From: Bacteroidales bacterium
GTDB lineage: Bacteria; Bacteroidota; Bacteroidia; Bacteroidales; UBA932
Length of the DNA: 64,000 bases
Direction of reading: 5' to 3'
Assembly: GCA_031551125.1 (NCBI GenBank)
Contig: JAVBOB010000001.1
Coordinates: 1-64,000, forward strand
The translations under genes were made by a program, and so were the position numbers. How positions within the stretch are numbered: position 1 is the first letter of the stretch; each line of letters begins with the position of its first letter. The notes beneath the pieces are model-generated. The model did no database searches, was not told the DNA's origin, and was given only the letters and a program-made list of their open reading frames with translations. This document shows, in pieces, positions 6,630 to 48,285 of this stretch.

Positions 6630-6686
6630 ATTTGGTTGTTTATGGGTTTTGCTAATGTGTGTTTGCTATATTTTGATCTGTTTTTG

Positions 6687-6842
6687 GGCCCAATTAGGAG
6701 CCACATCTTTGTAGCATGTTTGTTTTATTAAGCATTCGCTCCGTTAGGAGCGACATCTTACGCTCGTTTAAGATGCTGCTCCTAACGGAGCAGAGTTTAC
6801 TATATCATTTTCTTTCTACAAAGATGTTGCTCCTATGGAGCA
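6687..6842. repeat. S-module: nested palindromic repeat built from GCTCC-N-TTAGGAGC / CATCTTTGTAG units
   Basis: Outer arms GGCCCAATTAGGAGCCACATCTTTGTAG ... CTACAAAGATGTTGCTCCTATGGAGC. Inner palindrome CTCCGTTAGGAGCGACATCTT ... AAGATGCTGCTCCTAACGGAG. The same module recurs at 10688..10834, 16273..16446 and 60994..61146. Confidence 0.8.
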
Positions 6843-6849
6843 AATTTGC

Positions 6850-6953
6850 CGTCATTGCGAGCGAAGCGACCCGAAGGGCAGCGTAGCTAACCAATCTGCT
6901 TCAATTTAGGAGATTGCTTCGTGATTCAAAAAGCGAATCACTCACGATGATGG
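6850..6953. repeat. H-module: GTCATTGCGAG...CTCGCAATGAC inverted-repeat hairpin element
   Basis: CGTCATTGCGAGCGAAGCGA...GATTGCTTCGTGATTCAAAAAGCGAATCACTCACGATGATGG; this copy has a degenerate right arm. Homologous copies at 9379..9478 (inverted), 10842..10957, 16173..16257, 56765..56854 and 59326..59410. Confidence 0.8.
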
Positions 6954-7009
6954 TTGTTTTGTAAATATTCACTAGTTAATCAGTAGGTGTACGTTTATAG
7001 CCAAGCAGC

Positions 7010-7999: not shown

Positions 8000-8016
8000 G
8001 AGAGGTTTGTTTTTAT

Positions 8017-9348: not shown

Positions 9349-9378
9349 CTCTTAATATTTCTTTACTGTGAGTCTATA

Positions 9379-9478
9379 CGTCATTGCGAGCAATTCGCTT
9401 TCTGAATCGTGAAGCAACCTCTGGCTATCAAAGATTGGTTAGCTTCGCTGCCCTTCGGGTTGCTTCGGATGCAATGAT
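9379..9478. repeat. H-module copy, inverted orientation, partly degenerate
   Basis: CGTCATTGCGAGCAATTCGCTTTCTGAATCGTGAAGCAA...GATTGGTTAGCTTCGCTGCCCTTCGGGTTGCTTCGGATGCAATGATG aligns to the reverse complement of 6850..6953. Confidence 0.7.
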
Positions 9479-9483
9479 GTGGG

Positions 9484-10200
9484 CTAACTTCTGAAAATAG
9501 ATTTTCCTTCCCGTAGTGGTTCATACATGGCTTTACTGTCAACATAGTCGCAGTAGTCGTCCATTTCGTCCAGCTCCTCGGCCTCCTCTTCGCTCACAGG
9601 GTCAACCAGTATATCATGATTTATGAGATGGTAGAAAGCCCTATCGCTCATAAACTCAATATCGTTTTTCACCTTGTTGCTCTTGCCATTGTCAACACGA
9701 TATTCGTTGCCGTAAGCAAGCTTAAAGCTGATAGTCCCTTCTATTTTAAAGAAATGCTCTTCGGGATAAAAGAACCCGGCTGTAGCATTGCCTTTAATAA
9801 TGGCAAAACAATCGTTGTAGTGCCCAATAATTGCACCCTCCACGTCAACATTTCCCTTCACCTCAAGCGTGCCCCCTGTTATAAGATTTTTCGCTTTCAG
9901 ATTTCCTCCCACATAAATGTGGGTTGCCGGCTCATCATCGTAATGTTCCAGCAGGCCGTTAACCGTTAAGCTTCCTGTTACTATTAGGTTGCAAATTTCA
10001 TCACCTAATTCCAAATTGCCGTCGATAACCAAATCGCCAATGCAAACAACGGTATCGCATTCCATATCGTTGCTTTCAGCATAGTTCAGATGCCACTCCA
10101 TAAAATTTTCTTTAAGCTCCGAAGCGCTTAGTGTTTTATGGATTTCGTCCATGCTGATTTCGCCTTTTATCAGGCTGCGGGTATTTTTTAGTGTTGTCAT
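9484..10200 (-). CDS. paralog 4 of the beta-solenoid-like domain family (238 aa)
   Basis: IGDLVIDGNLELGD..NLIVTGSLTVNG...IYVGGNLKAKNLITGGTLEVKGNVDVEGAIIG; acidic C-terminus. Confidence 0.55.
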   Translation of the reverse strand: MTTLKNTRSLIKGEISMDEIHKTLSASELKENFMEWHLNYAESNDMECDTVVCIGDLVIDGNLELGDEICNLIVTGSLTVNGLLEHYDDEPATHIYVGGNLKAKNLITGGTLEVKGNVDVEGAIIGHYNDCFAIIKGNATAGFFYPEEHFFKIEGTISFKLAYGNEYRVDNGKSNKVKNDIEFMSDRAFYHLINHDILVDPVSEEEAEELDEMDDYCDYVDSKAMYEPLREGKSIFRS

Positions 10201-10247
10201 TTGTATGTTTTTTCGTGTAATTCTTGGTTCTTTTTAGGCAACGACGT

Positions 10248-10628
10248 TTAGTATTCGGGTACTTGAGCGGTAAACTCTACACCATCAACGGTGCATGATT
10301 TAGCGTAGAGCGACAGGCTACAGCTTGTTTGTTCTGACCCCGGATAGTAGCTGCCGTTTTCGTAAATTTGATTTGCCAGCTTTACTTCGCGAAATACCAC
10401 GCTACGTTGCTTACTTCCGCCGATTATAATGGTAACATCCGCCGATTGGTATTGCCCGGCGGCAAGACGCAGTATGGGTTGTGGTATTTGTTCGTACCAC
10501 GAAAAGTCTAAGGATATTTGACCATTCTCAGCATTTACGGGAAGCCTGTAGCTGTAAGAGTAAGTGTTGTATTTGTACACATCGGTTTTGCCTGTACTTG
10601 TTCGTAGGGTTAGTTCCAGCTCTATCAT
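10248..10628 (-). CDS. hypothetical small protein (126 aa)
   Basis: Compact ORF between two repeat-family genes; no motif recognised. Confidence 0.4.
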   Translation of the reverse strand: MIELELTLRTSTGKTDVYKYNTYSYSYRLPVNAENGQISLDFSWYEQIPQPILRLAAGQYQSADVTIIIGGSKQRSVVFREVKLANQIYENGSYYPGSEQTSCSLSLYAKSCTVDGVEFTAQVPEY

Positions 10629-10687
10629 AGTGTTATAAGTTATTATGGTTATTTTGTTATTCGTTGTTATTTGTTGAGGCTCCGTTA

Positions 10688-10834
10688 GTAGCCGAATCTT
10701 TGTAGTAGGTTTGCTCTGTCTGCTGTTCGTTCCGTTAGGAGCGACATCTTATCTTCTGTTTGAGATGCTGCTCCTAACGGAGCAGATTTGCTATACGCTT
10801 TTTCTTTCTACAAAGATGTTGCTCCGTAGGAGCA
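10688..10834. repeat. S-module copy
   Basis: GGCTCCGTTAGTAGCCGAATCTTTGTAG ... CCGTTAGGAGCGACATCTTATCTTCTGTTTGAGATGCTGCTCCTAACGGAGC ... CTACAAAGATGTTGCTCCGTAGGAGCA. Confidence 0.8.
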
Positions 10835-10841
10835 AATTTAC

Positions 10842-10957
10842 GGTCATTGCGAGCGAAGCGAAGCAATCCCTGCGCTATATATCGCGCTAGTTAATCCATG
10901 CATTTGACACACAGAGATTGCTTCGTGATTCAAAAAGCGAATCACTCGCAATGACGG
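10842..10957. repeat. H-module copy abutting the stop codon of CDS 10965..14135
   Basis: GGTCATTGCGAGCGAAGCGAAGCAATC...GATTGCTTCGTGATTCAAAAAGCGAATCACTCGCAATGACGG; a hairpin-forming, likely terminator-like element. Confidence 0.8.
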
Positions 10958-10964
10958 GCGGGCA

Positions 10965-13900
10965 TTATTTACCGCCTTTTGCCTGCCAGGCCAAGAAGTT
11001 TTTGTCTTTCTTTAGGTCTGCAAAATCGCCAAAGTCGGAATATTTTGACAGTACGAAGTCAACAATACGGTAAGCCTCATCGGTGCGACCCAGCTTAAGC
11101 AGAATGCGCACTTTCGTATCGTAAATGTAGTAGTGGCTGCTACCTTCAATACAATCTATACCGCGTTCAACGGCTTTTAGCGCTTCTTCCAGCTGTCCTG
11201 TTTCCATTAAGAACCATCCAAGCGAGTTTCCGGCTTCGCGGTTTACCTCTTTATGGAACTGTCCCTCATCGGTGAAGACCCAGATTAAGCCAACAGGCGG
11301 AACCAGCTCTAAGGCCTTGCGGTTGTATGCAATCAGCTGTTGCAGGGCAGCCTCGCGCTCTTTGCCGTCTATGTTGGCTATTAATCGGCCTAAGCAGTAC
11401 ACAAGCCCGTAGTAAGTGTATTGTAGGTTGTAGGTGGTGCAGGGCTTGCCCGATTCGAACAGCGTAACGGCTTCTTCGAACGTTTTCATGGCTTCTTGCT
11501 TTTTGCCGTTAACCATTTGTTCTGCGCCTTTCTTTACAATTTTATCTACCGCACCTTCCTTTTCCCTTTCCCTATCAATACTCTTGCACCTTCTAAGGTC
11601 GAACTTAACGCCTGTGGGGAAGGTTTCGAAAATGCGCTTAAGCGTAGCCTCATTCAGCTGGGCGTACTCTAGCTTTACCTCTTTGAGGTTTTTCAATGCA
11701 AAGAACGATTCGGGCAGCGTTTCCAATTCCGTAAAGCTGATGGTAAGCTTCTGTAGCTTGGGCATATTGGTAAAAGCGTTTTCGGGCAACCGCTTTAGGC
11801 ATTTTCGCTCTACAATGTGCTTACCCGCTTTTGAGCTGTACTCCTTTTCTTCGCCCCAGCGGCTTAGGTCTAGCTCTTCCAGCGAGGGGATATTCCATAT
11901 TTGCGGCAGTTCCAACAGCTCCAGCTTAGCATAAGGTCTTGAACCGCCGTCGAGGGTTAGCTTGCGCAGGTGTGTTAGCTTGGAAAGGTCGCAAACCTTT
12001 TCAACCAAACCAAGGCAGTCAATCTCAAGTTCCTCCAGCATTTGCAGCTTAAGAAAGCGGTCGCCAATTTCGGCCAGCGGTAAGCTTTCCAGCTTAAGCG
12101 TCTTCAGGTTTTTTAAATCGAATATTACGGTGGCCTTACCCGTTATTTTACAGATAGACAGCTTATCCAAGCTGTCCAGCTTAGCCATTGATTGCGGCAG
12201 GTCGCAGCATGTTTCCTGAAGATAAAGTTCCTTTAGCCCGCTCAGGTCACCGATTTCGTTGGGTAGCGATTTCAGGCTGTACAGGTATTTAAGGTTGAGT
12301 GATCGCAGCTCCTTCAGCTTACCAATCTCTGCAGGAAGAGTTTCCAGGCGGCACAGGTACTTAAGATTGAGCGAGCGTAGCTTCTGCAGCTTACCAATCT
12401 CTGCAGGCAAGGTTTCCAGTATGTTATGTTCCAAATCCAAATCTTCCAGCTCGCTCAGCTCTCCAATGCGAGGTGAAAGCACCTCGAGGTCGTTATTGCT
12501 AAGGTCTAGCACCTTTAGCTTAGTAAAGCGGAACAGCTGCTCGGGAAGTTTCTTTATGTGCCTTCCGGACAGGTCTAATCTTGTAATCTCATCAGCGTTT
12601 TTTAGCAGCTCGTTCAGCTCTTTTACCAGCGCTTCACTGGCAGGCATGGCATTTTTGCGCAAGATAGGCGCACCTTCCTGCATAGCTTTTCGAATAGCCC
12701 GGTAATCCATGCTTTCGCCATCGTCATCTATGAATTTTGGAAGCAGCGCTTTTAGGGCCTCATCACTATCAAAGTCAATGGCACAGTTCGTCTGGTAATC
12801 GTTGATAATCATTGCTTCCGGCTGCTTTGCAAACCACATACTGAAGTATAGTATGTTCACAATAAGCTTAGCTCTTGTATTTCCGCCTATGTTCAGCTCT
12901 CCTCCGTCATCGCCAAACATTCCCATAATGCCATTTTCAACCTCCACGTTGCCTCTTATCGATACGTTGGCACAGCCGCCCAGCAAAAGGTTTTTTGCCT
13001 TAACGTTTCCGGTAACCAGCAAAAAGCTGCCATCTAGGTCGGTAGCCCACTCAAGGTCGCCATCTACTATTAAATCACCATCAACAATAAGGTTGAATTC
13101 GCCACCATTTACCGAGCCAACGTGCAGGTTTCCCTTGTGCAGGCAGGTTTCTTGCTCATCTGCAAAATCAAGAAAGGGGAAGTTAATATCCTCGGATATT
13201 TTGTAGGTTTCCTCTGCCTCTTCCGCATTAACAAGCGCAATAATTTCTTTGTAGTTTTTATCAGTCAGGCTTTGAATGTTTGTAGTTTGAGAGCTTTTGT
13301 TGCTGCTCTTTGCTTCGGCAGCTGCTTTGGGTTTGGCTACTGTAGGCTCAGCGGTAGCAAGCCCGTTTTCTACATGGTAGTCCTTAATCAGTTCGGCCAG
13401 CTCGGTAACAACCGAGTAGAACGTCATATCGCCCTCGTGCCAGCCATCGTTCATGCCCAAATCCTGATAGTCGAAGTGGCGCACCTTCATTTCGCCTGTG
13501 GTATCGGCACTGCTAATAACGTAGAGGTAGAAACGTTCGCCTTCGGGGCTGGCGCAAAACAGCAAGCCGTCATTCATAATTTCTCCTTCCTCATCGTAAT
13601 CTTCAAACTCCTCGCGGTATTCGCTGGTTTGCTCTACCATTTCTTCCGGAGAAAGCAGGCTCGTATTATTTCCGCTGCCCTGTCCTAACAGCTCACCATC
13701 GAAGTAGAACATTCCGTAGCGGGTAACGAAATCGGTGTATGAAGCAGGTAGCTTCACCTTTAGCTTTTTTTCTGCCTTGGCTATTTCTTTTGCTGTAACA
13801 AGGTCTGAGAATTCAACCGATTCTTCAATACCGTTTGCCTCTAACCATTCATTCAGCTCATCTAACACCTGCTTTGCCTGTTCGGCCTGAGCTGTTGATG

Positions 13901-27857: not shown

Positions 27858-30800
27858 TTATGCTTTTCCTCGTTCAACCTCTTGCTTAATTCCATCGAAA
27901 ATAGTGATGGCCTGACTCACAGAGCTAATATTAACCACTGTAAGTGATAGCTTTCCGTTGCTCTCTTTTACCCTAAATAGGCGAGACCGAGACTGTATGT
28001 ACTGTAAAACTTGGGCAAATAAGCTGGTGCGGTAGTATGGTGATAGCTGGTTAGAAATGAAGTAAGCCACCAATACTCCGTTTTTCATTATAATACGTTC
28101 AAATCCAAGCGAAGTGGCGCGTTGACGCAGGCGAACAATATTGAACAGCTCTTCGGCGGCAGGAGGGGGTGTCCCAAATCGGTCAACCAGCTTATTTTGG
28201 AAACGTTGCAGCTCAATATCGCTATCCATTCCATCCAGCTCCTTGTAAAGCCTTATTTTTTCGGCGGTACTGCCAATATACTCATCGGGAAATAGCGCTT
28301 CAAAGTCGGTTTCAATGTAGCAATCCGATACAAAAGAGGCTTTGCTATCCGGTAACATAGGCTGTACCTCCTTCCCTTCTTCCATTGTTTCCAGCAAGGC
28401 TTCTTCATGCAGCTCCTGTAGCGCTTCGTTTAAAATACGCTGGTAGGTTTCAAAGCCAATGTCGGAAATAAACCCGCTTTGCTCGCCGCCAAGTAAGTTC
28501 CCGGCTCCGCGTATGTCCAAATCCTGCATGGCAATGTTGAATCCGCTACCCAAGTCGGAAAATTCTTCGATGGCTTTCAACCTGCGACGTGCCTCATCGG
28601 TCAGCGCAACAGGAGGAGGCGCTAGAAGGTAACAGAATGCTTTGCGGCTAGACCGTCCCACACGACCGCGTAGCTGGTGTAAGTCACTCAGCCCAAAATT
28701 TTGGGCTGCATTAATAATAATGGTGTTGGCGTTTGGAATGTCTAGCCCCGACTCAACTATGGTAGTAGATATAAGTACATCAAAGTCTCCGGCCATAAAG
28801 TCCAGCATAACTTCTTCCAGCTGCTTGGGCTCCATTTGCCCGTGTCCGATGCCTGTTTTTACACCGGGACAGATACGGCGTATAATATCCTCTACCTCTT
28901 TTATATCATGTATCCGGTTATGTATGAAGAATACCTGCCCACCCCTGTTTACTTCATAGGTAATGGCTTCGCGTATAATATTTTCATTAAAGGTATGCAG
29001 CTCCGTAACAATAGGGTGGCGGTTGGGTGGCGGAGTATTAATGATAGACAAATCACGCGCACCCAGTAGCGAGAACTGCAACGTTCGAGGAATAGGTGTT
29101 GCGGTTAGCGTTAGCGTATCAACGTTTAGCCTTAGCTGGCGCAGCTTCTCTTTTGCTCCCACACCAAACTTTTGCTCCTCGTCAACTATCAGCAAGCCAA
29201 GGTCTTTAAACTTTACATCTTTACTTAATACGCGGTGCGTACCAATAAGAATGGTTACTTTCCCTTCCTCAACATCATGCAGAATGGTTTTTATTTCCTT
29301 TGCCGATTTGAGACGGCTGATAAACTCTACCCGTACCGGAAACTCTTTTAAGCGGTCGCCAAACGTTTTGTAGTGCTGGAGCGATAAAATGGTGGTAGGC
29401 ACTAAAACCGCAACCTGTTTATTATCACATGCGGCTTTAAACGCGGCACGTATGGCTACCTCGGTTTTGCCAAAGCCAACATCGCCGCACACCAGCCTGT
29501 CCATAGGGTTGGGCGATTCCATATCTTCCTTTACCGCTATGGTAGCCTTCTCTTGGTCGGGCGTATCTTCGTATATAAACGAAGCCTCCAGCTCGTGCTG
29601 TAAAAAAGTATCGGGAGTAAACGCAAAACCTTCGGTAACCTTGCGCTTGGCGTAAAGGGCAATCAGCTCGCGAGCAATATCCTTTACTTTCTTCTTGGTG
29701 GTTTGCTTCAGCTTTTGCCAAGCGCCTGTACCTAACTTATAAATCTTAGGCGGTTCGCCGTCCTTACTCTTATAGCGTGATATACGGTGCAGCCCCTGAA
29801 TGTTTACAAACAGCACATCATTATCACGGTAGGTAAGCTTAATGGCCTCCTGTACCGTACCGTTGACGGTTGTTTTCACCAACCCCCCGAACACGCCAAC
29901 GCCATGGTCAATGTGTACCACGTAGTCGCCGGTTTGCAGGCTGTTTAGCTCCTGTAGGGTAAGCGCCTCACTTTTATCTAGGTTTCCACGCAGCTTAACG
30001 CGCTGGTAGCGTTGAAATATTTGATGGTCGGTATAGAAGCAACGCTTAATAGCGTTATCAATAAAGCCCTCGTGAAGCGTAAGGTTGTTGTACTCTACCT
30101 GCACATCGCCTGATGCAATGGAGCTGAATATTTGCCGAAGTCGCTCTTGCTGTTGCGTGGTATCCGCTAGAATGACGGTAGTGTAACCTTTGACTTGATT
30201 TTCGCGAATATTGGCCGCCAGCAAGTCGAAGTTTTTGTTGAACGACGGTTGCGGCGCGGTATGAAACTCTATCGTTCTTGCAGGCGTTACGCTCGTATCT
30301 GTTGAGAGTAGAACGGTAGAGAACCGTTTACACAATCCTTCAACATCAGCTTTATCAACTAAGCGGGTTACGCTTTCTTTATCCTGAACGCTTTCAATAG
30401 CTTTACCAACCAGCTGGCAGAACAGGCTGTAATCATCAAACCAGAGCTTGGCCTTCGTTCCTATAAAATCAAAGAACGAGCTGCTGCTTTCGTTTCGGTT
30501 TAAGTCGGCTATAATTTCAACGCTGTCCAGCCGCTCGACGGATAGCTGTGTGCCAATATCAAATGTGCGTATAGAGTCTATTTCATTCCCTAAAAAGTCG
30601 ATACGATAGGGCTTGTTGGTGGAGAACGAGAATATATCTACAATGCTGCCTCGCACAGAGTATTGTCCGGGTTCGTAAACAAAGTCGGTACGTTCAAAGC
30701 CGTACTCCATCATCACCTCACGAACAAAGTCGATGCTCAGCTTCTCACCCTTTTTCAGCTTAAGCGTGTTGCTGTTCAGCGTTTCTTTCGATACCACTTT

Positions 30801-31277
30801 CTCCGCCAGCGCATCGGGATAGCTTACAATAGCCGTAAAATCTTTACTGTGCGCCTGTTTCTCGAGTAGCCCCAACGCTCCTGTACGTTGTACAATTCCT
30901 GACGGGTCTTGCTGTTCGTACTGTATGCTCCTTTTATAGGATGAGGGAAAGAAGACAACCCTATCTGATCCGGTGAGGTTGTAAAGGTCGTCATAGAAGT
31001 AAGCGGCCTCGTCCTTATCGTTGAGGATAAAGATGTGTAGCCCGCCCATGCGCTCAAGGCATGCGGCGGCCAACAGGCTTCGTGATGAGCCCGAAAGCCC
31101 CTTGGCTAGTATGCACAATCGTCCCGCGGAAGAGAGTTCGGCAAGTAGCTGCTTACACCCATCCTGGGAGGCAAACTGTTCGGTTATTGTCTTCACAAAC
31201 AGAGATAAAAAATGAGGCGTAAAGGTAGTAAATAAAGTGAATGGGGGGGTGGTGAATTGGGGGTGGGCTATTCTCAT
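27858..31277 (-). CDS. mfd: transcription-repair coupling factor Mfd
   Basis: About 1100-aa superfamily-2 helicase with DEEQKFGV (DExH) and TATPIPRTL / QLRGRVGR motifs and the TRCF domain architecture. The N-terminal ~35 codons of the track ORF may be over-extension. Confidence 0.85.
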   Translation of the reverse strand: MRIAHPQFTTPPFTLFTTFTPHFLSLFVKTITEQFASQDGCKQLLAELSSAGRLCILAKGLSGSSRSLLAAACLERMGGLHIFILNDKDEAAYFYDDLYNLTGSDRVVFFPSSYKRSIQYEQQDPSGIVQRTGALGLLEKQAHSKDFTAIVSYPDALAEKVVSKETLNSNTLKLKKGEKLSIDFVREVMMEYGFERTDFVYEPGQYSVRGSIVDIFSFSTNKPYRIDFLGNEIDSIRTFDIGTQLSVERLDSVEIIADLNRNESSSSFFDFIGTKAKLWFDDYSLFCQLVGKAIESVQDKESVTRLVDKADVEGLCKRFSTVLLSTDTSVTPARTIEFHTAPQPSFNKNFDLLAANIRENQVKGYTTVILADTTQQQERLRQIFSSIASGDVQVEYNNLTLHEGFIDNAIKRCFYTDHQIFQRYQRVKLRGNLDKSEALTLQELNSLQTGDYVVHIDHGVGVFGGLVKTTVNGTVQEAIKLTYRDNDVLFVNIQGLHRISRYKSKDGEPPKIYKLGTGAWQKLKQTTKKKVKDIARELIALYAKRKVTEGFAFTPDTFLQHELEASFIYEDTPDQEKATIAVKEDMESPNPMDRLVCGDVGFGKTEVAIRAAFKAACDNKQVAVLVPTTILSLQHYKTFGDRLKEFPVRVEFISRLKSAKEIKTILHDVEEGKVTILIGTHRVLSKDVKFKDLGLLIVDEEQKFGVGAKEKLRQLRLNVDTLTLTATPIPRTLQFSLLGARDLSIINTPPPNRHPIVTELHTFNENIIREAITYEVNRGGQVFFIHNRIHDIKEVEDIIRRICPGVKTGIGHGQMEPKQLEEVMLDFMAGDFDVLISTTIVESGLDIPNANTIIINAAQNFGLSDLHQLRGRVGRSSRKAFCYLLAPPPVALTDEARRRLKAIEEFSDLGSGFNIAMQDLDIRGAGNLLGGEQSGFISDIGFETYQRILNEALQELHEEALLETMEEGKEVQPMLPDSKASFVSDCYIETDFEALFPDEYIGSTAEKIRLYKELDGMDSDIELQRFQNKLVDRFGTPPPAAEELFNIVRLRQRATSLGFERIIMKNGVLVAYFISNQLSPYYRTSLFAQVLQYIQSRSRLFRVKESNGKLSLTVVNISSVSQAITIFDGIKQEVERGKA

Positions 31278-31463
31278 GAGGGATACGGTTTAGAGAGGTA
31301 TGAGATTATTGGGCAAGTGATAAATTTAAGCAATAAAGTTGTAAATAATTAATTTTTTAAATGAATATATTTGACATATTAGAAATAATTATGATATAGC
31401 TATATTTACAAATTACGTTGTAAAAGTCGCTACTTGCAAATAATTTTGATTATCAGCAAATTA

Positions 31464-32636
31464 ATGAAAAATAGAATTTTTCCCATCGAAATCACCGAAT
31501 TTTCTGTTGAAGCCCTACTTCGCAAGTACAGCAAGAGAAGTTATGTGATTTATATCGTTGTATTGCTTTTTGTACTATTTGCATTTGCTGCATTATTCTT
31601 TATCACAGTAGATGTGAGTGTGAGAGCAAGCGGCATACTAAAAACACCCGGAGAGCGGATCGCTGTGACTGCTCCCGCATCAGGTCGTATTTATCAGTTA
31701 AGAATAACAGAAAACGATGTGGTTAGTAAGGGTGATACGTTATTTGTGGTTTCACAGGATGTATGGAAAGAGCAAGCAAAAAATTACCAAGTTCGTAAAG
31801 ACGAATTAGTAAACTTGCTTTCTGACTTAAACCAGCTAACAGCATCGAATAAAAGAAAGCAAATAGCGTTCAAAACGGATTATTACCAGCAAAGCTTTGC
31901 GCTATATTCCGGTCGCCAAGCTAGTGCTCAAAGTCGCTTAGAAGTTGTTGAGAAAAATTATACCCGTCATAAACTTTTGCTTAAGGATAAGGTGATTGCT
32001 CAGGCTACGTTTGAACCCGTTGAGGGGGAATATAATGAAGCCAAATCCGCAATCTCAACGTTGTACAATGAGCAAATGAACCAGTGGCAGAGCGACCAGC
32101 AACAATATCAGCTGGAGCTACAAAATTTGGAATCGCAAATTAACCAGCTGGATATACAGCAGCAACAACTAATTGTACTGGCTCCGGTGTCGGGAAGCAT
32201 TCAGCAGCTGGCCGGTGTAAGGCAAGGAAACTATGTAACAGAAGGGCAGCAGCTGGTTGAAATTTCTCCCGACAGTACGTTGCAAGTAGAGTGTTACGTT
32301 AGCCCCAAAGATATTGGACTTATCCGTACAGGACAAGTTGTTCGCATACAGGCGGATGCATATAACTATAACGAATGGGGAATGTTGGACGGTTGTGTGA
32401 CGGGTATTTCACATGATATTACCATTCAGAATTCTCAGCAACAGCCTTTTTTCAAGGTATTTTGTCGATTGGAGAAAACGCATCTTACGCTGAAGAATGG
32501 TTTTACGGGGCAGCTGAAAAAAGGAATGACTGCCAATATTCGCTTTGTAGTTACTCGTCGTACACTATTCCAAATGCTATATGACAAGACCGATGATTGG
32601 TTAAATCCCAACAGCCCGAAGGAAATATCAAATTAG
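31464..32636 (+). CDS. HlyD-family membrane-fusion/secretion adaptor protein
   Basis: Single N-terminal TM YVIYIVVLLFVLFAFAALFFITV, a long coiled-coil and a C-terminal beta domain. It is immediately upstream of the C39-ABC exporter. Confidence 0.75.
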   Translation: MKNRIFPIEITEFSVEALLRKYSKRSYVIYIVVLLFVLFAFAALFFITVDVSVRASGILKTPGERIAVTAPASGRIYQLRITENDVVSKGDTLFVVSQDVWKEQAKNYQVRKDELVNLLSDLNQLTASNKRKQIAFKTDYYQQSFALYSGRQASAQSRLEVVEKNYTRHKLLLKDKVIAQATFEPVEGEYNEAKSAISTLYNEQMNQWQSDQQQYQLELQNLESQINQLDIQQQQLIVLAPVSGSIQQLAGVRQGNYVTEGQQLVEISPDSTLQVECYVSPKDIGLIRTGQVVRIQADAYNYNEWGMLDGCVTGISHDITIQNSQQQPFFKVFCRLEKTHLTLKNGFTGQLKKGMTANIRFVVTRRTLFQMLYDKTDDWLNPNSPKEISN

Positions 32637-32659
32637 TCACCCTAAATTTCTCAACTTAT

Positions 32660-34825
32660 ATGAAAGTAAAGCAGCATGATATTACCGATTGCGGTGCAGC
32701 GTGTTTGGCATCTATAGCGGGACATTACGGTTTGAAAATGCCTATAGCTCGTATCCGCCAAATTGCATCTACCGACCAAAAAGGGACTAATATATTGGGG
32801 CTTATTGAAGCCGCCCAGCAGTTAGGCTTTGCGGCAAAGGGGGTAAAGACGTCGATTGTTAATGGAGAAAAGGATACTACGCCTCTTGAGAAAATTCCAA
32901 AACCGGCAATAGCGCATGTTGTGGTTAAAGATGTGCTGCACCACTTTGTCGTTATTTACAAAGCCGATGGAAAACAGGTAACAGTTATGGATCCGGCCGA
33001 CGGAAAAATGCATTGTTACAGCTACGACACGTTTTGCCACATGTGGACGGGAATGCTAATCTTGCTGGTTCCGCAGGACGATTTTAAAACAGGGAATGAA
33101 AAAGTCAGCATATCCAAGCGATTTTGGTACTTACTTCGTCCGCATGGAGGGGAGTTGGTACAAGCCATCTTCGGAGCCATTGTTTTTACGGTTTTAGGCT
33201 TGGCAACTTCTGTTTTTGTACAGAAAATAGTAGATAACGTTATTCCTGAAGGCAACGGGAGGTTGCTGAACTTGCTCAGCGTGGTGATGATTGTTATTTT
33301 ATTTCTATCCGTATTCATCAGCTACTTTAAAACGTTGTTTGTTATTCGTATCGGTCAGAAAATTGATGCACGCTTGATATTGGGCTACTACAAACACCTG
33401 CTGCGTTTGCCCCAAAGTTTTTTTGATAACATGCGTACAGGAGAAATTATTTCACGTATCAACGATGCGGTGAAGATCCGTGTATTTATTAACGATACAA
33501 TGATTAACCTGCTGGTGTCGTTGTTTATGCTGGTATTTGCTTTTGTGCTGATGTTTACGTACTACTGGAAGTTGGCGTTAATTTTACTCGCTATTATACC
33601 GCTTTACGCGATGATATATGTTTTGTTTAACTATGCCAACCGCCGTACTCAGCGTAAGCTGATGGAGCATTCTGCTGATTTGGAAGCACAGCTGGTAGAG
33701 TCAATCAATACGGCAGGTACGATTAAGCGCTTTGGTATGGAGAGTTTTGCCGGAATGAAAACCGAAACCCGTTTTGTGCGATTGCTAACAACTATTTATA
33801 CTTCCGGAAAAACTGCCTTGTGGGCAAGTTCAGCTACAGATTTTATTTCGCGCTTATTCGTGATTATTCTACTTTGGTGTGGCACCTATTTTGTGTTGCG
33901 CAACCAAATTACTCCCGGAGAGCTGCTTTCGTTTTACGCGTTGATAGGCTATTTTACCGGACCTATCGCTAGTCTCATTGGAATGAACCGCAGCTTACAG
34001 GATGCAAGAATTGCGGCAGACCGCCTATTTGAAATAATGGATTTGGAACGTGAGGATGAGCAAAAGAAAATACCGTTTAGCAAAGAACAAGTTGGCGACA
34101 TTGTATTTGAAAACGTAAGTTTTCGTTACGGAAGCCGCACTACCGTTTTTCAAAATCTGAACTTACAGCTTTCTAAAGGAAAAATAAGTGCGGTAGTAGG
34201 AGAAAGCGGTTCGGGAAAAACCACCTTGCTTTCAATTCTTCAAAACCTATACCCCTTACAGGGCGGGAGTGTTACTATAGGCGGCGTGGATGTTCGGCAT
34301 ATTGACAGTAGCAGCTTACGCCAGCTGGTGAGTGTTGTTCCGCAGCAGATTGATTTGTTTGAGGGTTCGTTGATTGATAATATTGCGCTGGGCGATTTCT
34401 CCGTTGATTACCAACAGGTATTATCTATTTGTGGAGCCATTGGCCTGTTACCTTTTATTCAATCCTTACCCCAAGGTTTTCATACCAACATTGGCGAGAA
34501 CGGAGTGAAGCTGTCCGGCGGACAGCGCCAGCGTATTGCTATTGCGCGGGCGCTGTACCGTAAGCCCGAAATACTGATTTTAGATGAAGCTACTTCGGCA
34601 TTAGATTCCGAGTCGGAGCAAAATATTAAAGCATCAATAGACCAACTGCGGAGCGAGGGAAAAACCATTATTGTAATTGCTCACCGCTTGGGAACCGTAA
34701 CGGGAGCCGATTGTATTTACATGCTCCACCAAGGCAGCTTGGAGGCCAAAGGTACACATGAGGAGCTGCTGGCAGGCAACGAGCGCTATGCCAGGTATTG
34801 GAAAGCGCAAACACAACTAGCTTAA
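32660..34825 (+). CDS. peptidase C39 domain-containing ABC transporter (bacteriocin/peptide exporter)
   Basis: N-terminal C39 motif QHDITDCGAACLASIAGHYG; 6-TM domain; Walker A GESGSGKTTL; signature LSGGQRQRIAIARAL; Walker B ILILDEATSALD. Confidence 0.9.
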   Translation: MKVKQHDITDCGAACLASIAGHYGLKMPIARIRQIASTDQKGTNILGLIEAAQQLGFAAKGVKTSIVNGEKDTTPLEKIPKPAIAHVVVKDVLHHFVVIYKADGKQVTVMDPADGKMHCYSYDTFCHMWTGMLILLVPQDDFKTGNEKVSISKRFWYLLRPHGGELVQAIFGAIVFTVLGLATSVFVQKIVDNVIPEGNGRLLNLLSVVMIVILFLSVFISYFKTLFVIRIGQKIDARLILGYYKHLLRLPQSFFDNMRTGEIISRINDAVKIRVFINDTMINLLVSLFMLVFAFVLMFTYYWKLALILLAIIPLYAMIYVLFNYANRRTQRKLMEHSADLEAQLVESINTAGTIKRFGMESFAGMKTETRFVRLLTTIYTSGKTALWASSATDFISRLFVIILLWCGTYFVLRNQITPGELLSFYALIGYFTGPIASLIGMNRSLQDARIAADRLFEIMDLEREDEQKKIPFSKEQVGDIVFENVSFRYGSRTTVFQNLNLQLSKGKISAVVGESGSGKTTLLSILQNLYPLQGGSVTIGGVDVRHIDSSSLRQLVSVVPQQIDLFEGSLIDNIALGDFSVDYQQVLSICGAIGLLPFIQSLPQGFHTNIGENGVKLSGGQRQRIAIARALYRKPEILILDEATSALDSESEQNIKASIDQLRSEGKTIIVIAHRLGTVTGADCIYMLHQGSLEAKGTHEELLAGNERYARYWKAQTQLA

Positions 34826-34850
34826 TCGGGAACTTATCATATACATTACC

Positions 34851-35168
34851 ATGAAATCATTAGTAACCTTAGCCAAGCTAAGAATTTTAGAGAAGCTGAT
34901 TCATTCCGAGAGTACCGGTACTTCCGAACAGCTGGCGCAGCGGCTGCATATAAGCCGCAGTAAGCTGTTTGAACTGATTGATGAGCTGAAGCTGAAGGGT
35001 GTTCCCATTTCTTACTCTAAAAAGAAAAAGAGCTTTGTGTTTGACCGCCCGCTGGAGTTGTTACTGAAAGCCGAAGTAACCTTTTTGGACAACGAAGAGG
35101 TGATTGACATTAGCGGAGGACAAGCATTACAAAATATGCTTTGCAGCATAAATTTGTGTAGTGCTTAG
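34851..35168 (+). CDS. small putative HTH DNA-binding protein (105 aa)
   Basis: LRILEKLIHSESTGTSEQLAQRLHISRSKLFELIDELK resembles a winged-HTH; it sits between the exporter and the leader-peptide genes. Confidence 0.4.
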   Translation: MKSLVTLAKLRILEKLIHSESTGTSEQLAQRLHISRSKLFELIDELKLKGVPISYSKKKKSFVFDRPLELLLKAEVTFLDNEEVIDISGGQALQNMLCSINLCSA

Positions 35169-35315
35169 TAGCGTTCTTTTTTGTGGACTAACTCCGAATA
35201 GTTTTGTACCTGTCTTTGCAAAGAACAGGCTAATCCTGCGGCATGTAAAAGTGAGCAGGTATGTTTAATTCAAAAACTTACAATGATGAGGAGCTTAGAT
35301 TTAAATGCTCATGGA

Positions 35316-35474
35316 ATGACTGAACTGAATGAGCAGGAAATAAAGGATGCTAATGGTGGAGGTTGGTTTTGGCCAGCTGTGCTATTTCAGGTAGCGATGG
35401 AACTTTTCGATGGGTCTTTTTTTAGTGATATTGAAAAAGGAAGAAAAGAGGCAAGAGAGGTTCTCGGAAAATAA
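35316..35474 (+). CDS. double-glycine leader peptide precursor 1 (bacteriocin-like)
   Basis: Leader MTELNEQEIKDANGG|G, then core WFWPAVLFQVAMELFDGSFFSDIEKGRKEAREVLGK. An alternative upstream ATG lies at 35283. Confidence 0.65.
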   Translation: MTELNEQEIKDANGGGWFWPAVLFQVAMELFDGSFFSDIEKGRKEAREVLGK

Positions 35475-35503
35475 AATGATATTAATCCTTAAATAATTAT
35501 AGT

Positions 35504-35695
35504 ATGCAACTTGAAAAATATGGTGTTATTGAATTAACACAACAAGAACAATTATTGGAAAATGGAGGCGGTCCGATAGGTCGTATAGTTGGTTGGTTTT
35601 TGGGCTTCCTTGAAGTGGTGGGCGAAGTTCATCAAGAGGTGTCGAAATCTCCAGAAGCAGCAGCTGTTTATCAGGCTTGGAATGATTTTAGATAG
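35504..35695 (+). CDS. double-glycine leader peptide precursor 2 (bacteriocin-like)
   Basis: MQLEKYGVIELTQQEQLLENGG|G, then core PIGRIVGWFLGFLEVVGEVHQEVSKSPEAAAVYQAWNDFR. It is followed by the hairpin ACTGCATTTG...CAAATGCAGT (35713..35753). Confidence 0.65.
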   Translation: MQLEKYGVIELTQQEQLLENGGGPIGRIVGWFLGFLEVVGEVHQEVSKSPEAAAVYQAWNDFR

Positions 35696-35773
35696 TTGTA
35701 TAAATACTGCATTTGTGTAAATTGAGTAAATTTGCGCAAATGCAGTTTATCCCATTTATGTAAATAACTTTTT

Positions 35774-36115
35774 ATGCTTAAAAGTCTATCCTCTCGAATA
35801 TACTTTGGCTTATTCGTTATTTTTTTTTCCATTTTTCTTTTGGTCAATTATTGTGGTCATTGGCAAGTTAGTTCAGTTATTTCTTGTTTTTACCCCATTA
35901 ATCTTTGTTTTTTATTATGGTCGATAAATGATTGTTCAAGAAGGGCAAAGGTATATATTACTATTGCTGTTTTGTTGCTAGGATTACTGCTTTGGACTAA
36001 TACGAAAGTTGCTGGTTACCCATTGATCATTCCATTTATTTCTGCGTTTATTGCATTGGCGATAAGTTATATTGTTGATAGGAGGTGTAGAGGTAGGTGT
36101 AATTCTAAAAATTAG
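35774..36115 (+). CDS. small membrane protein (113 aa), N-terminus resembling the neighbouring CPBP genes
   Basis: LKSLSSRIYFGLFVIFFSIFLL parallels LHRLKTKYLFTIGVFFPILLGL of the CPBP gene 36122..36619; there are no protease motifs. Either an immunity-like peptide or a gene fragment. Confidence 0.4.
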   Translation: MLKSLSSRIYFGLFVIFFSIFLLVNYCGHWQVSSVISCFYPINLCFLLWSINDCSRRAKVYITIAVLLLGLLLWTNTKVAGYPLIIPFISAFIALAISYIVDRRCRGRCNSKN

Positions 36116-36121
36116 TATTTT

Positions 36122-36619
36122 GTGTTTCGAGTTTTACAGTTGTTGCATAGGCTTAAGACCAAGTACCTATTTACAATAGGTGTATTTTTCCCTATACTTT
36201 TGGGGCTTATGGTGGTTTTTATTGCTCAACTTTTTCCTGATATTTATAACGATGAAGAGGATGTTACGCAAAAAATCTTACAGAATCCTCTTAATTTATT
36301 AAGTGCATTGATATTGGCTCCCGCTATTGAAACGTTAATTCAGTATGTGCCGGTAAAAATATCAGACTATTACTTATCAAGGAGGTGTAAATTTGCGAAC
36401 TTTATAGCAATTGTTCTATCTGCAATTGTGTTTGCATCTTTGCATAACCAACATTTTATTTTTCTTATACCGCTATTTTTTGCGGGCTTAACGTGGGCTA
36501 CTTTATGTTTGGTTTTTATTCAACAAAAAATTAATCCATATTTGTCTATTGCATTGATGCATTTTGGCTATAATTTGATTATTCTATCGCTTGATATTGC
36601 GATATATGGATATGCATAG
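36122..36619 (+). CDS. CPBP-family (Abi/CAAX protease-like) membrane protein; putative bacteriocin self-immunity
   Basis: Motifs APAIETLIQY (EExxxR-like), FASLHNQH (FxxxH) and HFGYNLI (HxxxN). Confidence 0.6.
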   Translation: MFRVLQLLHRLKTKYLFTIGVFFPILLGLMVVFIAQLFPDIYNDEEDVTQKILQNPLNLLSALILAPAIETLIQYVPVKISDYYLSRRCKFANFIAIVLSAIVFASLHNQHFIFLIPLFFAGLTWATLCLVFIQQKINPYLSIALMHFGYNLIILSLDIAIYGYA

Positions 36620-36630
36620 CCATTACATGA

Positions 36631-36843
36631 AATGAAGCGCTTTGGAAATATTGCTATAGTTGGATTGTCTTATTTGGTATGCTTCTGTATAGTGCGTTGT
36701 ATGTAGGCTACGCATTTATAGGGGGAGTTCTTCTTGCGTTGACATTTTTAGGTTGTTTTAAAAAGAGGGGATATACTTATGCATATTTTTTAGTTTGCAT
36801 TGTTCATAGTTTGTTTAATATAAGTGTTCACTACCTCTCGTAA
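36631..36843 (+). pseudogene. C-terminal remnant of a CPBP-family gene
   Basis: Stop-to-stop frame translates ...YVGYAFIGGVLLALTFLGCFKKRGYTYAYFLVCIVHSLFNISVHYLS* and carries the HxxxN-type motif. It is too short to be intact, and no upstream part lies in frame. Confidence 0.45.
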
Positions 36844-36871
36844 ATTGATTATATGATTTGATCTTGATTCT

Positions 36872-37340
36872 ATGCAAGCGCTGGTTAATACATTAAAACA
36901 GCGGTCATCGCTGTTTATATTTTTGCTGGTATTCGGTATCAAACTTTTGTTGTGTGTTGTTTGGCATTTTTGCTTTAGGCACGCAGGGGGGAACGGATAT
37001 GTCGGAGTTCTCACCTATTGCAGAGTTTATACTTGTTGTTGTTATTGCTCCTCTTGTTGAAACATTTTTAGTGCAATACCTACCCATAGCAATACTTATT
37101 AAGTACACTAAAGCGCCTTCGCTTCTTATAATTATTATATCGGCTGCTTGTTTTTCCCTGTTGCACACCTATAGTTTAGCGTATGTAACCTATACATTTC
37201 TATCAGGATTGATGCTTGCATTTGCATTTGTGGTTTTCTATATTAAGAAAAATAGTTTTTTATTTGCATTCCTTATGGTATGTTTAGTTCATGCGGTATT
37301 TAATGCCGGATTATTTTCGCTTAAGTATTGTAGTCAATAA
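36872..37340 (+). pseudogene. frameshifted CPBP-family gene (two overlapping ORFs in different frames)
   Basis: ORF 36872..37060 encodes an N-terminus MQALVNTLKQRSSLFIFLLVFGIKLL homologous to the N-terminus of 36122..36619. ORF 36954..37340, in another frame, carries APLVETFLVQYLP, FSLLHTYS and HAVFNAGL (the three CPBP motifs). Confidence 0.5.
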
Positions 37341-38234
37341 CTTCGAAGTTTTTATGTTTTGTAATTATGGAACAGGATTTAAAAAAAATGAACAAGCGGA
37401 TTGAGGCTAATCCTCTCCGTTTGATATTTGTTGCGTTGGTATTGGTATATGCTTTGGGTGAAGTTGCCCATGGTTTTGGAGAAGCGATAGCTGAAGTTAT
37501 TAAGCCTTGAGCAGTTGTAATGGCTATAAATGTAAATTGATAAAAATATGAATATGGAAGAGTTGGAACGAAAATATAATAGGCTGAAGCGGGAAAACCG
37601 GATATTGATTTTGTTTATTGTAATTTGTATAGGTATTATGCTCTATAACCATTATGCATAGCTGTTGTACCAAAACAGCATATTTTGGGATTCTTCTTTT
37701 TGTGAAAACGAGAAACAGGTGGTTGCAAAGAACGCTACAAGCTGGGTTGCCGTCATTGTTATTGTGTTACTTTTGGTATTCGCAAAAGCAATTTTTGACG
37801 TAGGTTTTTCCAATGAAAAGGTTAAGCGTGAGTGTTTGCGAGAGGGAAATTTCTGCATAAAGCAACCTATCCCGAGCAAGCGGCGGGGTTGCATTCCGCC
37901 GAAGGATAGGCTAGCCCATGAAAAACCGTATAGCGTAAGCCCGTCTTGATTTTTTGGTTCTTTTGCCCACAACGTATTTATTTGGTAGTGTTCGCGAGGG
38001 CTTCGCCGTTGCATCAAGGCAAAAGAATGAAGGAATAAAACCACAAGTTAAAGAAGTATAGGTAGTAAGAATTTCAAATGATTTCCAATTATCTATCAGT
38101 AAATCAAATATTTAAAAATGTGAATTCCGCTAAAATTTCACTTGCGTTCAAAATAACCCGTTTGCCATTTCAGATTCAAAAAAAAGTTTTACCTTTGCCG
38201 TTCATTTAAAACAAACTAAAATTTTTGCTTTCAC

Positions 38235-44843: not shown

Positions 44844-44850
44844 GGCTTAG

Positions 44851-44924
44851 TCGGGGTGAAAGGACTCGAACCTTCGGCCTCCACGTCCCGAACGTGGCGC
44901 GCTAGCCAACTGCGCTACACCCCG
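44851..44924 (-). tRNA. tRNA-Pro (anticodon CGG)
   Basis: Reverse complement CGGGGTGTAGCGCAGTTGGCTAGCGCGCCACGTTCGGGACGTGGAGGCCGAAGGTTCGAGTCCTTTCACCCCGA folds as a cloverleaf: the 7-bp acceptor pairs, anticodon loop TTCGGGA, T-loop GGTTCGAGTCC, discriminator A, no encoded CCA. Confidence 0.85.
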
Positions 44925-48207: not shown

Positions 48208-48281
48208 CGGGGTGTGGCGCAGTTGGCTAGCGCACCTGCTTTGGGAGCAGGGGGTCCTCCGTTCGAGTCGGAGTACCCCGA
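48208..48281 (+). tRNA. tRNA-Pro (anticodon UGG)
   Basis: CGGGGTGTGGCGCAGTTGGCTAGCGCACCTGCTTTGGGAGCAGGGGGTCCTCCGTTCGAGTCGGAGTACCCCGA; anticodon loop TTTGGGA; acceptor stem pairs with one G-U. Confidence 0.85.
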
Positions 48282-48285
48282 CAAA

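Follow-up and report, generated by a model that had tools for sequence, protein, structure and literature searches.

A double-glycine peptide export locus in a Bacteroidales genome with a winged-helix regulator that may itself be an exporter substrate

We analyzed a 64,000-nt stretch of DNA from a Bacteroidales bacterium (contig JAVBOB010000001.1 of GenBank assembly GCA_031551125.1, positions 1 to 64,000; hereafter the window). At 31464-37340 lies a genuine Bacteroidota double-glycine (GG) peptide export locus with a pump, two precursors, and membrane genes, and with a gene for a 105-aa winged helix-turn-helix (wHTH) protein that ends in a GG motif and a short tail of its own. The genes listed in a first-pass annotation, which was made from the sequence alone and read the region as a complete class II bacteriocin-like locus, were all found in place by Pfam and NCBIfam domain searches and a leader profile (Table 1). 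Between mfd and rpsO-pnp, the genes all lie on the plus strand and every open reading frame (ORF) was accounted for; modification enzymes were absent from the ORF list and from the Pfam and NCBIfam results for this interval.

The export machinery begins with a membrane-fusion (adaptor) protein of the HlyD family, which has a single N-terminal transmembrane helix (aa 31-49, by hydropathy) and matches HlyD_3 (E = 2e-20), HlyD_D23, and Biotin_lipoyl_2 in Pfam and TIGR01843 (E = 5e-46) and TIGR01000 in NCBIfam. An alternative hlyD start, TTG at 31434, is possible. The next gene encodes a peptidase-containing ABC transporter (PCAT) with matches to Peptidase_C39 (E = 2e-31), ABC_membrane (E = 1e-53), and ABC_tran (E = 1e-29). 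Against NCBIfam TIGR01193 it scored 518.2 bits (E = 4e-155), slightly below the cut-off of 523.85; it aligned over residues 3-716 with the solved PCAT1 (4RY2; E = 9e-164), and ComA was also matched end to end. The motif DCGAACL occupies residues 10-16, and Q5 (oxyanion), C11, H95, and D111 align with the catalytic residues of PCAT1. Conservation extends to every ATPase motif, with Walker A at residue 514, the signature at 618, Walker B at 638, and the H-loop at 673. Judged by these alignments, the exporter is a full-length PCAT with an intact catalytic set. The first-pass annotation had held that a defective C39 domain would overturn its reading, and with the catalytic residues intact this objection fails; its proposal of a dedicated locus for GG peptide processing and export, with an adaptor, a PCAT, and two GG precursors, is borne out.

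Both precursors, pep1 and pep2, were compared with the recognition rule published for the C39 domains of ComA and LahT, in which L-12, E-8, L-7, and V-4 of the leader dock in a hydrophobic groove (PMC6363468). The pep1 leader (M-15, E-13, L-12, E-8, I-7, A-4, N-3, and GG) fits this rule throughout, and in pep2, V-15, E-13, L-12, E-8, and GG fit. A leader profile from related loci matched pep1 at E = 1e-9 and pep2 at E = 1e-5, and the pep1 leader is 47-64% identical to the leaders of three of these loci (L002, L006, and L007), with different cores. The predicted pep1 core, GWFWPAVLFQVAMELFDGSFFSDIEKGRKEAREVLGK, has 37 aa, a net charge of -1, and no Cys; it lacks a GxxxG motif and contains only GSFFS. 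The predicted pep2 core, GPIGRIVGWFLGFLEVVGEVHQEVSKSPEAAAVYQAWNDFR, has 41 aa, a net charge of -2, no Cys, and two GxxxG motifs (GRIVG and GWFLG). Neither peptide matched a bacteriocin or pheromone family in Pfam or NCBIfam, and the two cores are unrelated to each other, in agreement with the first-pass annotation on both points. The sole NCBIfam signal for pep1 was a weak match of its leader to the lactococcin-G-alpha model NF038035. Among 5.8 billion clusters, no relative of pep1 other than pep1 itself was found at E ≤ 0.01; its core loosely resembles those of L054 and L062, with a W-rich hydrophobic N terminus followed by an acidic segment. No relatives of the pep2 core were found in 81 related loci. 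From their sequences, pep1 and pep2 appear to be unmodified, hydrophobic, anionic, microcin-like peptides, for which we infer a toxin activity.

PCAT relatives were searched in one genome per species, and the best 80 of 578 were retrieved. These 80 share 58-70% identity and come from Bacteroidota without exception, the closest among them from metagenome-assembled genomes (MAGs) of uncultured Bacteroidales and Prevotellaceae. In 60 of 82 related loci, hlyD immediately precedes the PCAT gene, and 34 of the 82 contain an HTH-family gene, which mostly starts 10-250 nt past the PCAT stop codon. A leader-profile search of the related loci yielded 109 small GG peptides, one to six per locus, with the leader consensus MKNLxLxxYGVxELxxxEMxxIxGG and essentially unrelated cores. 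Since these cores have a median length of 37 aa and are net negative in 67 and Cys-free in 68 of the 109 peptides, the cores in the window are typical of the family. Small CPBP-family proteins (mini-CPBPs) occur in 19 related loci. By gene content, the locus is a member of a widespread Bacteroidota module comprising an adaptor, a PCAT, an HTH protein, hypervariable GG peptides, and small membrane or mini-CPBP proteins. Cultured carriers of the module include Pedobacter sp. AK013, Aquimarina spp., Solitalea agri, and Pontibacter sp. FD36.

The wHTH protein matches Pfam HTH_11 at 26.2 bits (cut-off, 25), and 21 of 23 homologues match this family as well. After the domain, its sequence runs V76-T-F-L79-D-N-E-E83-V84-I-D-I87-S-G89-G90 and then QALQNMLCSINLCSA, so that the key positions read V-15, L-12, E-8, V-7, I-4, and GG. 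Nearly all homologues encoded after a PCAT gene likewise run on into L-x-x-x-E-x-x-x-I-x-G-G and a short hydrophobic tail. In an alignment of 23 PCAT-linked homologues, E83 (-8) is invariant and G90 is conserved in at least 90%. The signature residues of the HTH domain are also strongly conserved in the homologue alignment (T22, G23, and S35 invariant; A29, L32, and Y64 in at least 90%), as expected of a working DNA binder. A separate small GG peptide translated from an internal start was considered and rejected, since in the window protein and its homologues alike the 25 residues preceding the GG include neither Met nor an alternative start.

The same motif characterizes the family at large. 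An exhaustive phmmer search placed 715 representatives at 50% identity in the HTH family, and a family profile search gave 316 clusters at 90% identity, which are currently labeled only as "HTH domain-containing," "hypothetical," "biotin operon repressor," or "YafY." We collected 209 members with 95 aa or more, and in 168 of them a strict GG lies within residues 78-125. When these 168 were anchored on the GG alone, position -12 was L/I/M/V in 90%, -8 was E/D in 81%, -4 was I/V/L/T in 90%, and -15 was hydrophobic in 71%, a profile that mirrors the leaders of the small peptides and matches the ComA/LahT rule (PMC6363468). Their tails have a median length of 20 aa and are Phe-rich. With a 15-residue leader profile built from the small peptides only and 2,400 shuffles as controls, 59 of 120 HTH homologues scored above the 99th percentile of the shuffles and 21 scored above all 2,400. 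Two members of the family match NF038035, presumably through the leader-like region, since the match of pep1 to this model covers the leader only. The minimal motif required by C39 domains is 13 residues, and substrates tagged with maltose-binding protein are also cleaved (PMC6363468). From this agreement of motif and position, we infer that the 105-aa regulator is itself a PCAT substrate. The HTH protein listed by the first-pass annotation is present and is not a bystander regulator: a canonical motif for PCAT cleavage and a tail make up its C terminus. The wHTH-GG-tail architecture has no model in Pfam or NCBIfam, and searches of the full-text literature found no description of it; as far as could be checked in these sources, the fusion of a wHTH domain, a GG motif, and a tail is undescribed.

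The genomic context of the family was examined with HTH-family proteins picked irrespective of PCATs. The genes for GG-tailed proteins lay directly after an adaptor and a PCAT gene and ahead of small GG peptide genes in five of five cases, and tail-less 90-aa paralogues lay beside a PCAT gene in none of three, all of them in unrelated neighborhoods. Within the loci selected by their PCATs, 23 genes for GG-tailed proteins begin no more than 700 nt past the PCAT stop codon, and four more lie upstream of hlyD. These distributions bear on the explanation that the HTH protein is an ordinary autoregulator, in which the GG-like stretch is a structural or oligomerization element that resembles a leader and is never cut by the PCAT. 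The wHTH fold and the HTH_11 match would suit such a protein, as would the poor conservation of the tails and the occurrence of tail-less relatives, some of which lie within PCAT loci (L026, L073, and L015). We nevertheless regard it as unlikely: five separate positions fit the C39 rule within a region predicted to be disordered, E-8 is invariant in the PCAT-linked set, and the motif is present in PCAT-adjacent members and missing from the three tail-less paralogues elsewhere in the genomes.

An AlphaFold 2 (AF2) model based on 118 homologues shows helices at residues 2-18, 25-31, and 36-48 and a beta-hairpin at 53-64 with a confidence score (pLDDT) of ~90. Residues 71-105 have a pLDDT below 56, which suggests a flexible appendage made up of motif and tail. 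The nearest folds found by Foldseek are the DNA-binding domains of NiaR, BirA (N-terminal), and DtxR/IdeR/MntR, and the protein is predicted to be a winged helix of the DNA-binding type. A PqqD-like leader-binding recognition element (RRE) was rejected, since no PqqD hit was obtained in Pfam and the top 50 PDB matches were mostly DNA-binding wHTH domains with no PqqD or RRE among them.

The model also bears on the explanation that the wHTH domain is an unusually long leader of the Nif11/nitrile-hydratase type, which has lost DNA binding and serves the tail as the real product. PCATs that act on leaders as large as a domain and with a terminal GG have precedent (PMC6363468), and AF2 places domain and tail in separate parts. 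Long-leader precursors of this type (Haft et al. 2010, as cited in PMC6363468) share with the window protein a domain-sized N terminus, a GG motif, a short C-terminal peptide, and a PCAT; however, their leaders derive from non-DNA-binding proteins and occur in many copies, and their cores become modified. The window protein, by contrast, has a conserved wHTH domain of the DNA-binding type; its gene is usually single and keeps its place within the locus, and genes for modification enzymes are missing from its surroundings. As the HTH signature residues are strongly conserved and the tails are too variable and too short for a selected product family, we consider a long leader highly improbable.

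Further variants of the module were seen in related genomes. In an Aquimarina sp. (L084; CP031965.1), an enlarged module at 6398-11110 has two HTH-family genes after the PCAT gene, one with a GG tail and one without, followed by 11 consecutive GG-leader peptide genes, several of them near-duplicates; a gene of the lanthipeptide-leader type and AraC/TPR regulators lie nearby. In L082 (8355-10152), genes for a UDPGT/EryCIII-like glycosyltransferase and for a 169-aa C39 peptidase that stands alone come after the module, which suggests that in some relatives the peptides are modified or undergo separate processing. Additional HTH-GG genes, truncated or frameshifted, occur in L083 (3354-3569) and L025 (5620-5951) and point to turnover of the HTH gene as well as of the cargo.

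Table 1. Features of the mfd-rpsO interval and its flanks (positions in the window)
Feature	Position	Strand	Basis or remark
mfd	27858-31277	-	left flank
Candidate operator half-palindrome ACTTGCAAAT	31432-31441	.	23 nt 5' of hlyD ATG; TTGCAA core
HlyD-family membrane-fusion (adaptor) protein, 390 aa	31464-32636	+	Pfam HlyD_3, NCBIfam TIGR01843
PCAT, 721 aa	32660-34825	+	C39, transmembrane, and nucleotide-binding domains
wHTH protein, 105 aa	34851-35168	+	Pfam HTH_11; domain aa 1-~70
GG recognition motif VTFLDNEEVIDISGG of HTH protein	35076-35120 (aa 76-90)	+	leader-motif match
15-aa tail QALQNMLCSINLCSA of HTH protein	35121-35165 (aa 91-105)	+	
Candidate operator, 21-nt near-palindrome CCTGTCTTTGCAAAGAACAGG	35209-35229	.	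gap between HTH gene and pep1
GG precursor pep1, 63 aa	35283-35474	+	leader aa 1-26, ends ...ANGGG
GG precursor pep2, 63 aa	35504-35695	+	leader aa 1-22, ends ...ENGGG
Strong stem-loop, then U-rich stretch	35706-35746	+	directly 3' of pep2, ahead of TM113
TM113, 113-aa membrane protein	35774-36115	+	hydropathy; ~3 transmembrane helices
Divergent mini-CPBP (Rce1-like), 165 aa	36122-36619	+	4 transmembrane helices; motifs IETLIQY / FASLH / HFGYN
54-aa ORF, C-terminal half of a mini-CPBP	36679-36843	+	retains HSLFN; without motifs 1 and 2
Mini-CPBP gene	36872-37340	+	GTG-start ORF 36954-37340, 128 aa; VETFLVQY / FSLLH / HAVFN
47-aa single-transmembrane ORF	37367-37510	+	hydropathy; no homologues; shorter version called as gene in L001
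37-aa single-transmembrane ORF	37548-37661	+	hydropathy; no homologues; shorter version called as gene in L001
rpsO-pnp	from 38235		right flank

Candidate binding sites for the regulator were found in the intergenic regions of the locus. A TTGCAA-type core is present in all three promoter-proximal gaps, before hlyD (ACTTGCAAAT), pep1 (TCTTTGCAAAGA), and TM113 (ATTTGCGCAAAT), where ~0.2 would be expected. The core before pep1 is a perfect palindrome at 35213-35224 inside the 21-nt near-palindrome, which forms no stable RNA hairpin (z = -0.5). The stem-loop after pep2 has 18-nt arms with 89% complementarity and a folding energy of -25.5 kcal/mol (z = -7.0; none of 200 shuffles was equally stable), and it holds the perfect 12-nt palindrome ATTTGCGCAAAT (35730-35741). 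This structure is likely a terminator or attenuator ahead of the membrane-protein genes, and possibly an operator too. Palindromes centered on TTGCAA or TTGCGCAA were found in 12 of 38 intergenic regions following HTH genes versus 6.4% of background windows (p ~2e-6), a post hoc p value, as the pattern was picked after inspection of the data. The regulator probably acts at TTGCAA-centered palindromes before hlyD, pep1, and TM113.

Other shared elements were noted as well. A 9-mer, TGTAAAAGT, common to the upstream regions of hlyD and pep1 was set aside as compatible with chance in AT-rich DNA. A scan for sigma-70 promoters and terminators, which was not designed for Bacteroidota promoters, gave no more sites than in shuffled sequence. 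In L003, a long element, TTTGTAGTGC..., is present both upstream of hlyD and 3' of the HTH gene, and in L026 the palindrome TTCCGAAATTC(A/T)CGGAA is shared between ~8965-9140 and the region upstream of the HlyD-homologous segment; these elements look like common regulatory sites for two transcription units.

Downstream of the stem-loop lie the small membrane protein TM113 and three copies of CPBP-type sequence. TM113 is also present in one other assembly, where it was left uncalled as a gene, and from its position and hydropathy it is the best-placed candidate for a microcin-type immunity protein. The mini-CPBP at 36122-36619 is 33% identical to its L003 homologue and scored 20.5 bits (E = 6e-4) against PF02517, below the cut-off of 22.4, which the ORF at 36954-37340 exceeds with 34.3 bits (E = 3e-8). 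The 54-aa ORF between them shares 48-50% identity with the C-terminal portion of the CPBP in L002 and 42% with the CPBP at 36954, and it is probably a gene remnant. Homologues of the mini-CPBPs have 150-185 aa, all with an N-terminal transmembrane helix that is missing from the ORF at 36954. Such a helix (MQALVNTLKQRSSLFIFLLVFGIKLLL...) is encoded from an ATG at 36872 in a different frame, and the CPBP frame is open 5' of 36954 with no start codon, the alignment with the L002 homologue beginning at 36921; together these features make a 1-nt frameshift near 36930-36950 probable. Just one further contig carries these genes, and its DNA is 100% identical; the frameshift could reflect gene decay in a cargo cassette or an assembly error.

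The motifs of the CPBP proteins had been given in the first-pass annotation as EExxxR, FxxxH, and HxxxN. The second and third are present (FASLH and FSLLH; HFGYN and HAVFN), but EExxxR is absent from the window proteins in an alignment with 14 homologues, which have P(L/I)xETxxFQ(Y/F) as motif 1 and retain one Glu. The corresponding window motifs are VETFLVQY (36954) and IETLIQY (36122; shorter by one residue), with ETFLVQY and ETLIQY in place of EExxxR. CPBP proteins serve as immunity factors in Gram-positive class II loci, and those of the window could be immunity factors or processing proteases. The description of the locus as complete could not be upheld: no TolC/OEP gene was found in the window by similarity to the OEP of a related locus, one CPBP copy is half-length, and another is without its N-terminal helix.

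The base composition divides the locus into two halves. The GC content of 35169-38234 is 34.8%, the lowest stretch in the 64 kb (mean, 43.7%; standard deviation, 2.3% in 3-kb subwindows), which confirms the AT-rich patch at 35.2-38.2 kb reported previously. The GC content at third codon positions (GC3) is 0.26-0.31 in pep1, pep2, TM113, and the CPBPs, and 0.40-0.51 in the genes for the adaptor, the PCAT, and the HTH protein as well as in the neighboring mfd, rpsO, and pnp. The horizontal acquisition proposed for the region therefore fits the cargo half only: foreign-looking codon usage is confined to it and the exporter half is host-like. Composition thus favors a resident exporter followed by a cargo cassette that is foreign or exchangeable over acquisition of the whole locus. 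No marks of a mobile element were seen at the AT-rich patch (no integrase, no flanking direct repeats, and the nearest tRNA gene at 44.8 kb). Neither mfd nor rpsO adjoins the module in any of 80 related loci, and pnp does so in one of the 80.

The cargo half could also be read as a decaying, non-functional remnant from which active peptides are no longer made. The truncated CPBP (36679-36843), the probable frameshift (36872-37340), and the degenerate motif 1 (36122) point in this direction, as do the orphan small ORFs and the very low GC3. We judge this very unlikely, since neither the ORFs nor the motifs of hlyD, the PCAT gene, the HTH gene, pep1, and pep2 show damage, the strong terminator-like hairpin and the promoter-proximal palindromes have been kept, and the frameshift could be an assembly error.

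Several further observations were made in the flanks. In a distant relative from a Raineyaceae MAG (L078, 13573-15693), the PCAT gene is followed at a distance of 1.4 kb by pnp, which is also found downstream of the window locus; this is the only related locus with any of the window's flanking genes. The ~570 nt from the last mini-ORF to rpsO (37662-38234) contain no convincing gene, and GC climbs back toward the host level there; the overlapping ORFs in this segment are a TTG-start frame of 94 codons (37665-37949, with one hydrophobic segment) and a minus-strand frame of 130 codons. A 5S rRNA gene at 30-138 presumably marks the end of an rRNA operon, and two tRNA-Pro genes, CGG (minus strand, 44850-44924) and TGG (plus strand, 48208-48282), lie 3.3 kb apart.

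In its gene content, the window locus most resembles the class II microcin systems known from Gram-negative bacteria. For microcin V, the adaptor and the PCAT are encoded together (CvaA and CvaB), TolC is encoded elsewhere, and Cvi confers immunity (PMC12219008, PMC10352776, PMC6363468). Class II microcins and the window locus have in common the co-encoded adaptor and PCAT, small unmodified GG-leader peptides that are hydrophobic and non-cationic, and a small membrane protein gene beside the peptide genes. They differ in phylum, in leader length (~15 aa versus 22-26 aa in the window), and in the cores, which have no sequence similarity; the window locus also has CPBP-type genes and, right after the PCAT gene, a regulator with a leader motif, which falls outside the microcin paradigm. 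The Gram-positive class II/IIb frame is less apt than that of a Gram-negative class II microcin, which is preferred because of the adaptor with the PCAT and the anionic, Cys-free cores.

Bacteroidetocins are GG-leader toxins of Bacteroidales that target BamA (PMC6671954, PMC8546649). Their leaders have 15-16 aa, and the mature peptides have 42-48 aa, four positioned Cys, and a basic charge; the region encodes a transmembrane protein, the toxin, a thiol oxidoreductase, and a PCAT, with no adaptor or immunity gene (PMC6671954). The window peptides share with them the phylum, a GG leader cleaved by a PCAT, and unmodified peptides of ~40 aa. Membership in this group was nevertheless rejected, as the window leaders have 22-26 aa, the cores have no Cys and a charge of -1 or -2, and the locus has no thioredoxin-like or oxidoreductase gene and contains an HlyD adaptor, CPBP, and membrane genes.

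Kjos et al. are said to have described, in 2010, Abi/CPBP immunity genes in the Gram-positive class IIb loci for plantaricin and sakacin. Such loci resemble the window in an adjacent pair of GG-leader peptide genes followed by CPBP/Abi membrane proteins, and in the GxxxG motifs of pep2. The window differs from them in its Gram-negative host, its adaptor, its anionic cores, and its mini-CPBPs, which have 130-185 aa and ETxxFQ in place of EExxxR. Its regulation also differs, resting on a single wHTH protein, whereas class IIb loci use a set of pheromone, kinase, and response regulator. The sequences of pep1 and pep2 do not fit the class IIb two-peptide type: the genes are adjacent, but pep1 lacks the GxxxG motif and the cores are not cationic; the two peptides may act as a pair or separately.

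We consider it moderately probable that the locus as a whole is a microcin-like GG peptide export system whose wHTH regulator is a third substrate of the PCAT. In the proposed mechanism, the PCAT would bind an amphipathic motif of ~13-15 residues ending in Gly-Gly, its C39 domain (C11, H95, and D111) would cut after the Gly-Gly, and the transporter would carry the portion that follows the cut through the inner membrane. The HlyD adaptor would connect the PCAT to an outer-membrane channel, which, by analogy with microcin V, may be encoded elsewhere. Cleavage of pep1 after G26 and of pep2 after G22 would release cores that are exported through the adaptor-channel complex and are most likely antagonistic peptides, with TM113 and the mini-CPBPs, some of them decayed, most likely acting as self-protection or accessory factors. 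The PCAT would also cut the 105-aa regulator after G90, so that the 90-aa DNA-binding part stays in the cytoplasm and the 15-aa tail is exported or discarded. The form of the regulator would then track or control exporter activity; feedback, feed-forward, and signal release are possible logics.

Several findings weigh against this proposal. The tail of the window HTH protein is short and is without the common F-rich pattern. Tails share 23% identity where the domains share 65-80%, and random pairs share 16%; a first impression of strongly conserved tails was overturned by this measurement, and the faster divergence of the tails suggests that they may have little sequence-specific function. Considering these values, the tail may matter just as "something after the GG." In the pep2 leader, Q-7 and E-4 sit at positions that are normally hydrophobic. 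A search by similarity to the OEP of L083 found no TolC/OEP-type channel gene in the 64-kb window, TM113 has no homologues above the Pfam cut-off and none in 81 loci, and two of the three CPBP copies appear degenerate. The post hoc choice of the operator pattern belongs here as well.

Gram-positive bacteriocin and competence regulons use GG-leader induction peptides, such as ComC, BlpC, and PlnA, which are sensed by histidine kinases. They resemble the present proposal in that one exporter handles both the bacteriocin and a regulatory molecule from the same locus, but their signal is a separate small peptide, whereas in the window the GG motif is fused to a transcription factor and there is no kinase. 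These systems bring up the explanation that the locus serves mainly in cell-to-cell signaling, with pep1, pep2, and/or the regulator tail as pheromones and the wHTH protein as both precursor and responder. PCAT-exported induction peptides are well known in Gram-positives (PMC6363468), a fusion of regulator and peptide would make a compact circuit, and the tail resembles known short pheromones in its length and hydrophobicity. Yet the ORF list of the locus contains no gene for a sensor kinase, a peptide importer, or an RRNPP-type receptor, no known pheromone family in Pfam or NCBIfam was matched, and hypervariable cores of 37-41 aa, one to six per locus and accompanied by membrane and CPBP genes, resemble toxin-immunity arrays. 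We find a mainly signaling role decidedly unlikely and retain the microcin-like export system with a cleavable regulator as the preferred explanation.

As a bacteriocin-type locus, the region adds one more entry to a large and mostly uncharacterized reservoir of Bacteroidota GG peptides, useful for antimicrobial mining and in itself unsurprising. If the PCAT processes its own transcription factor, this would be a new coupling of secretion capacity to gene expression, and a wHTH domain followed by L-x3-E-x3-I-x-GG and a tail would serve annotation pipelines as a simple marker of these loci. More generally, and with somewhat more doubt than belief, we propose that a widespread class of Bacteroidota transcription factors (at least 715 clusters at 50% identity) are substrates of the neighboring exporter and are cut by its C39 domain between domain and tail, so that one protein would be a regulator, a sensor of exporter activity, and possibly a signal precursor. 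If true, this class would do with one component what circuits of pheromone, kinase, and response regulator do in the control of Gram-positive bacteriocin loci, and it would possibly be the first peptide-based signaling device in Bacteroidota.

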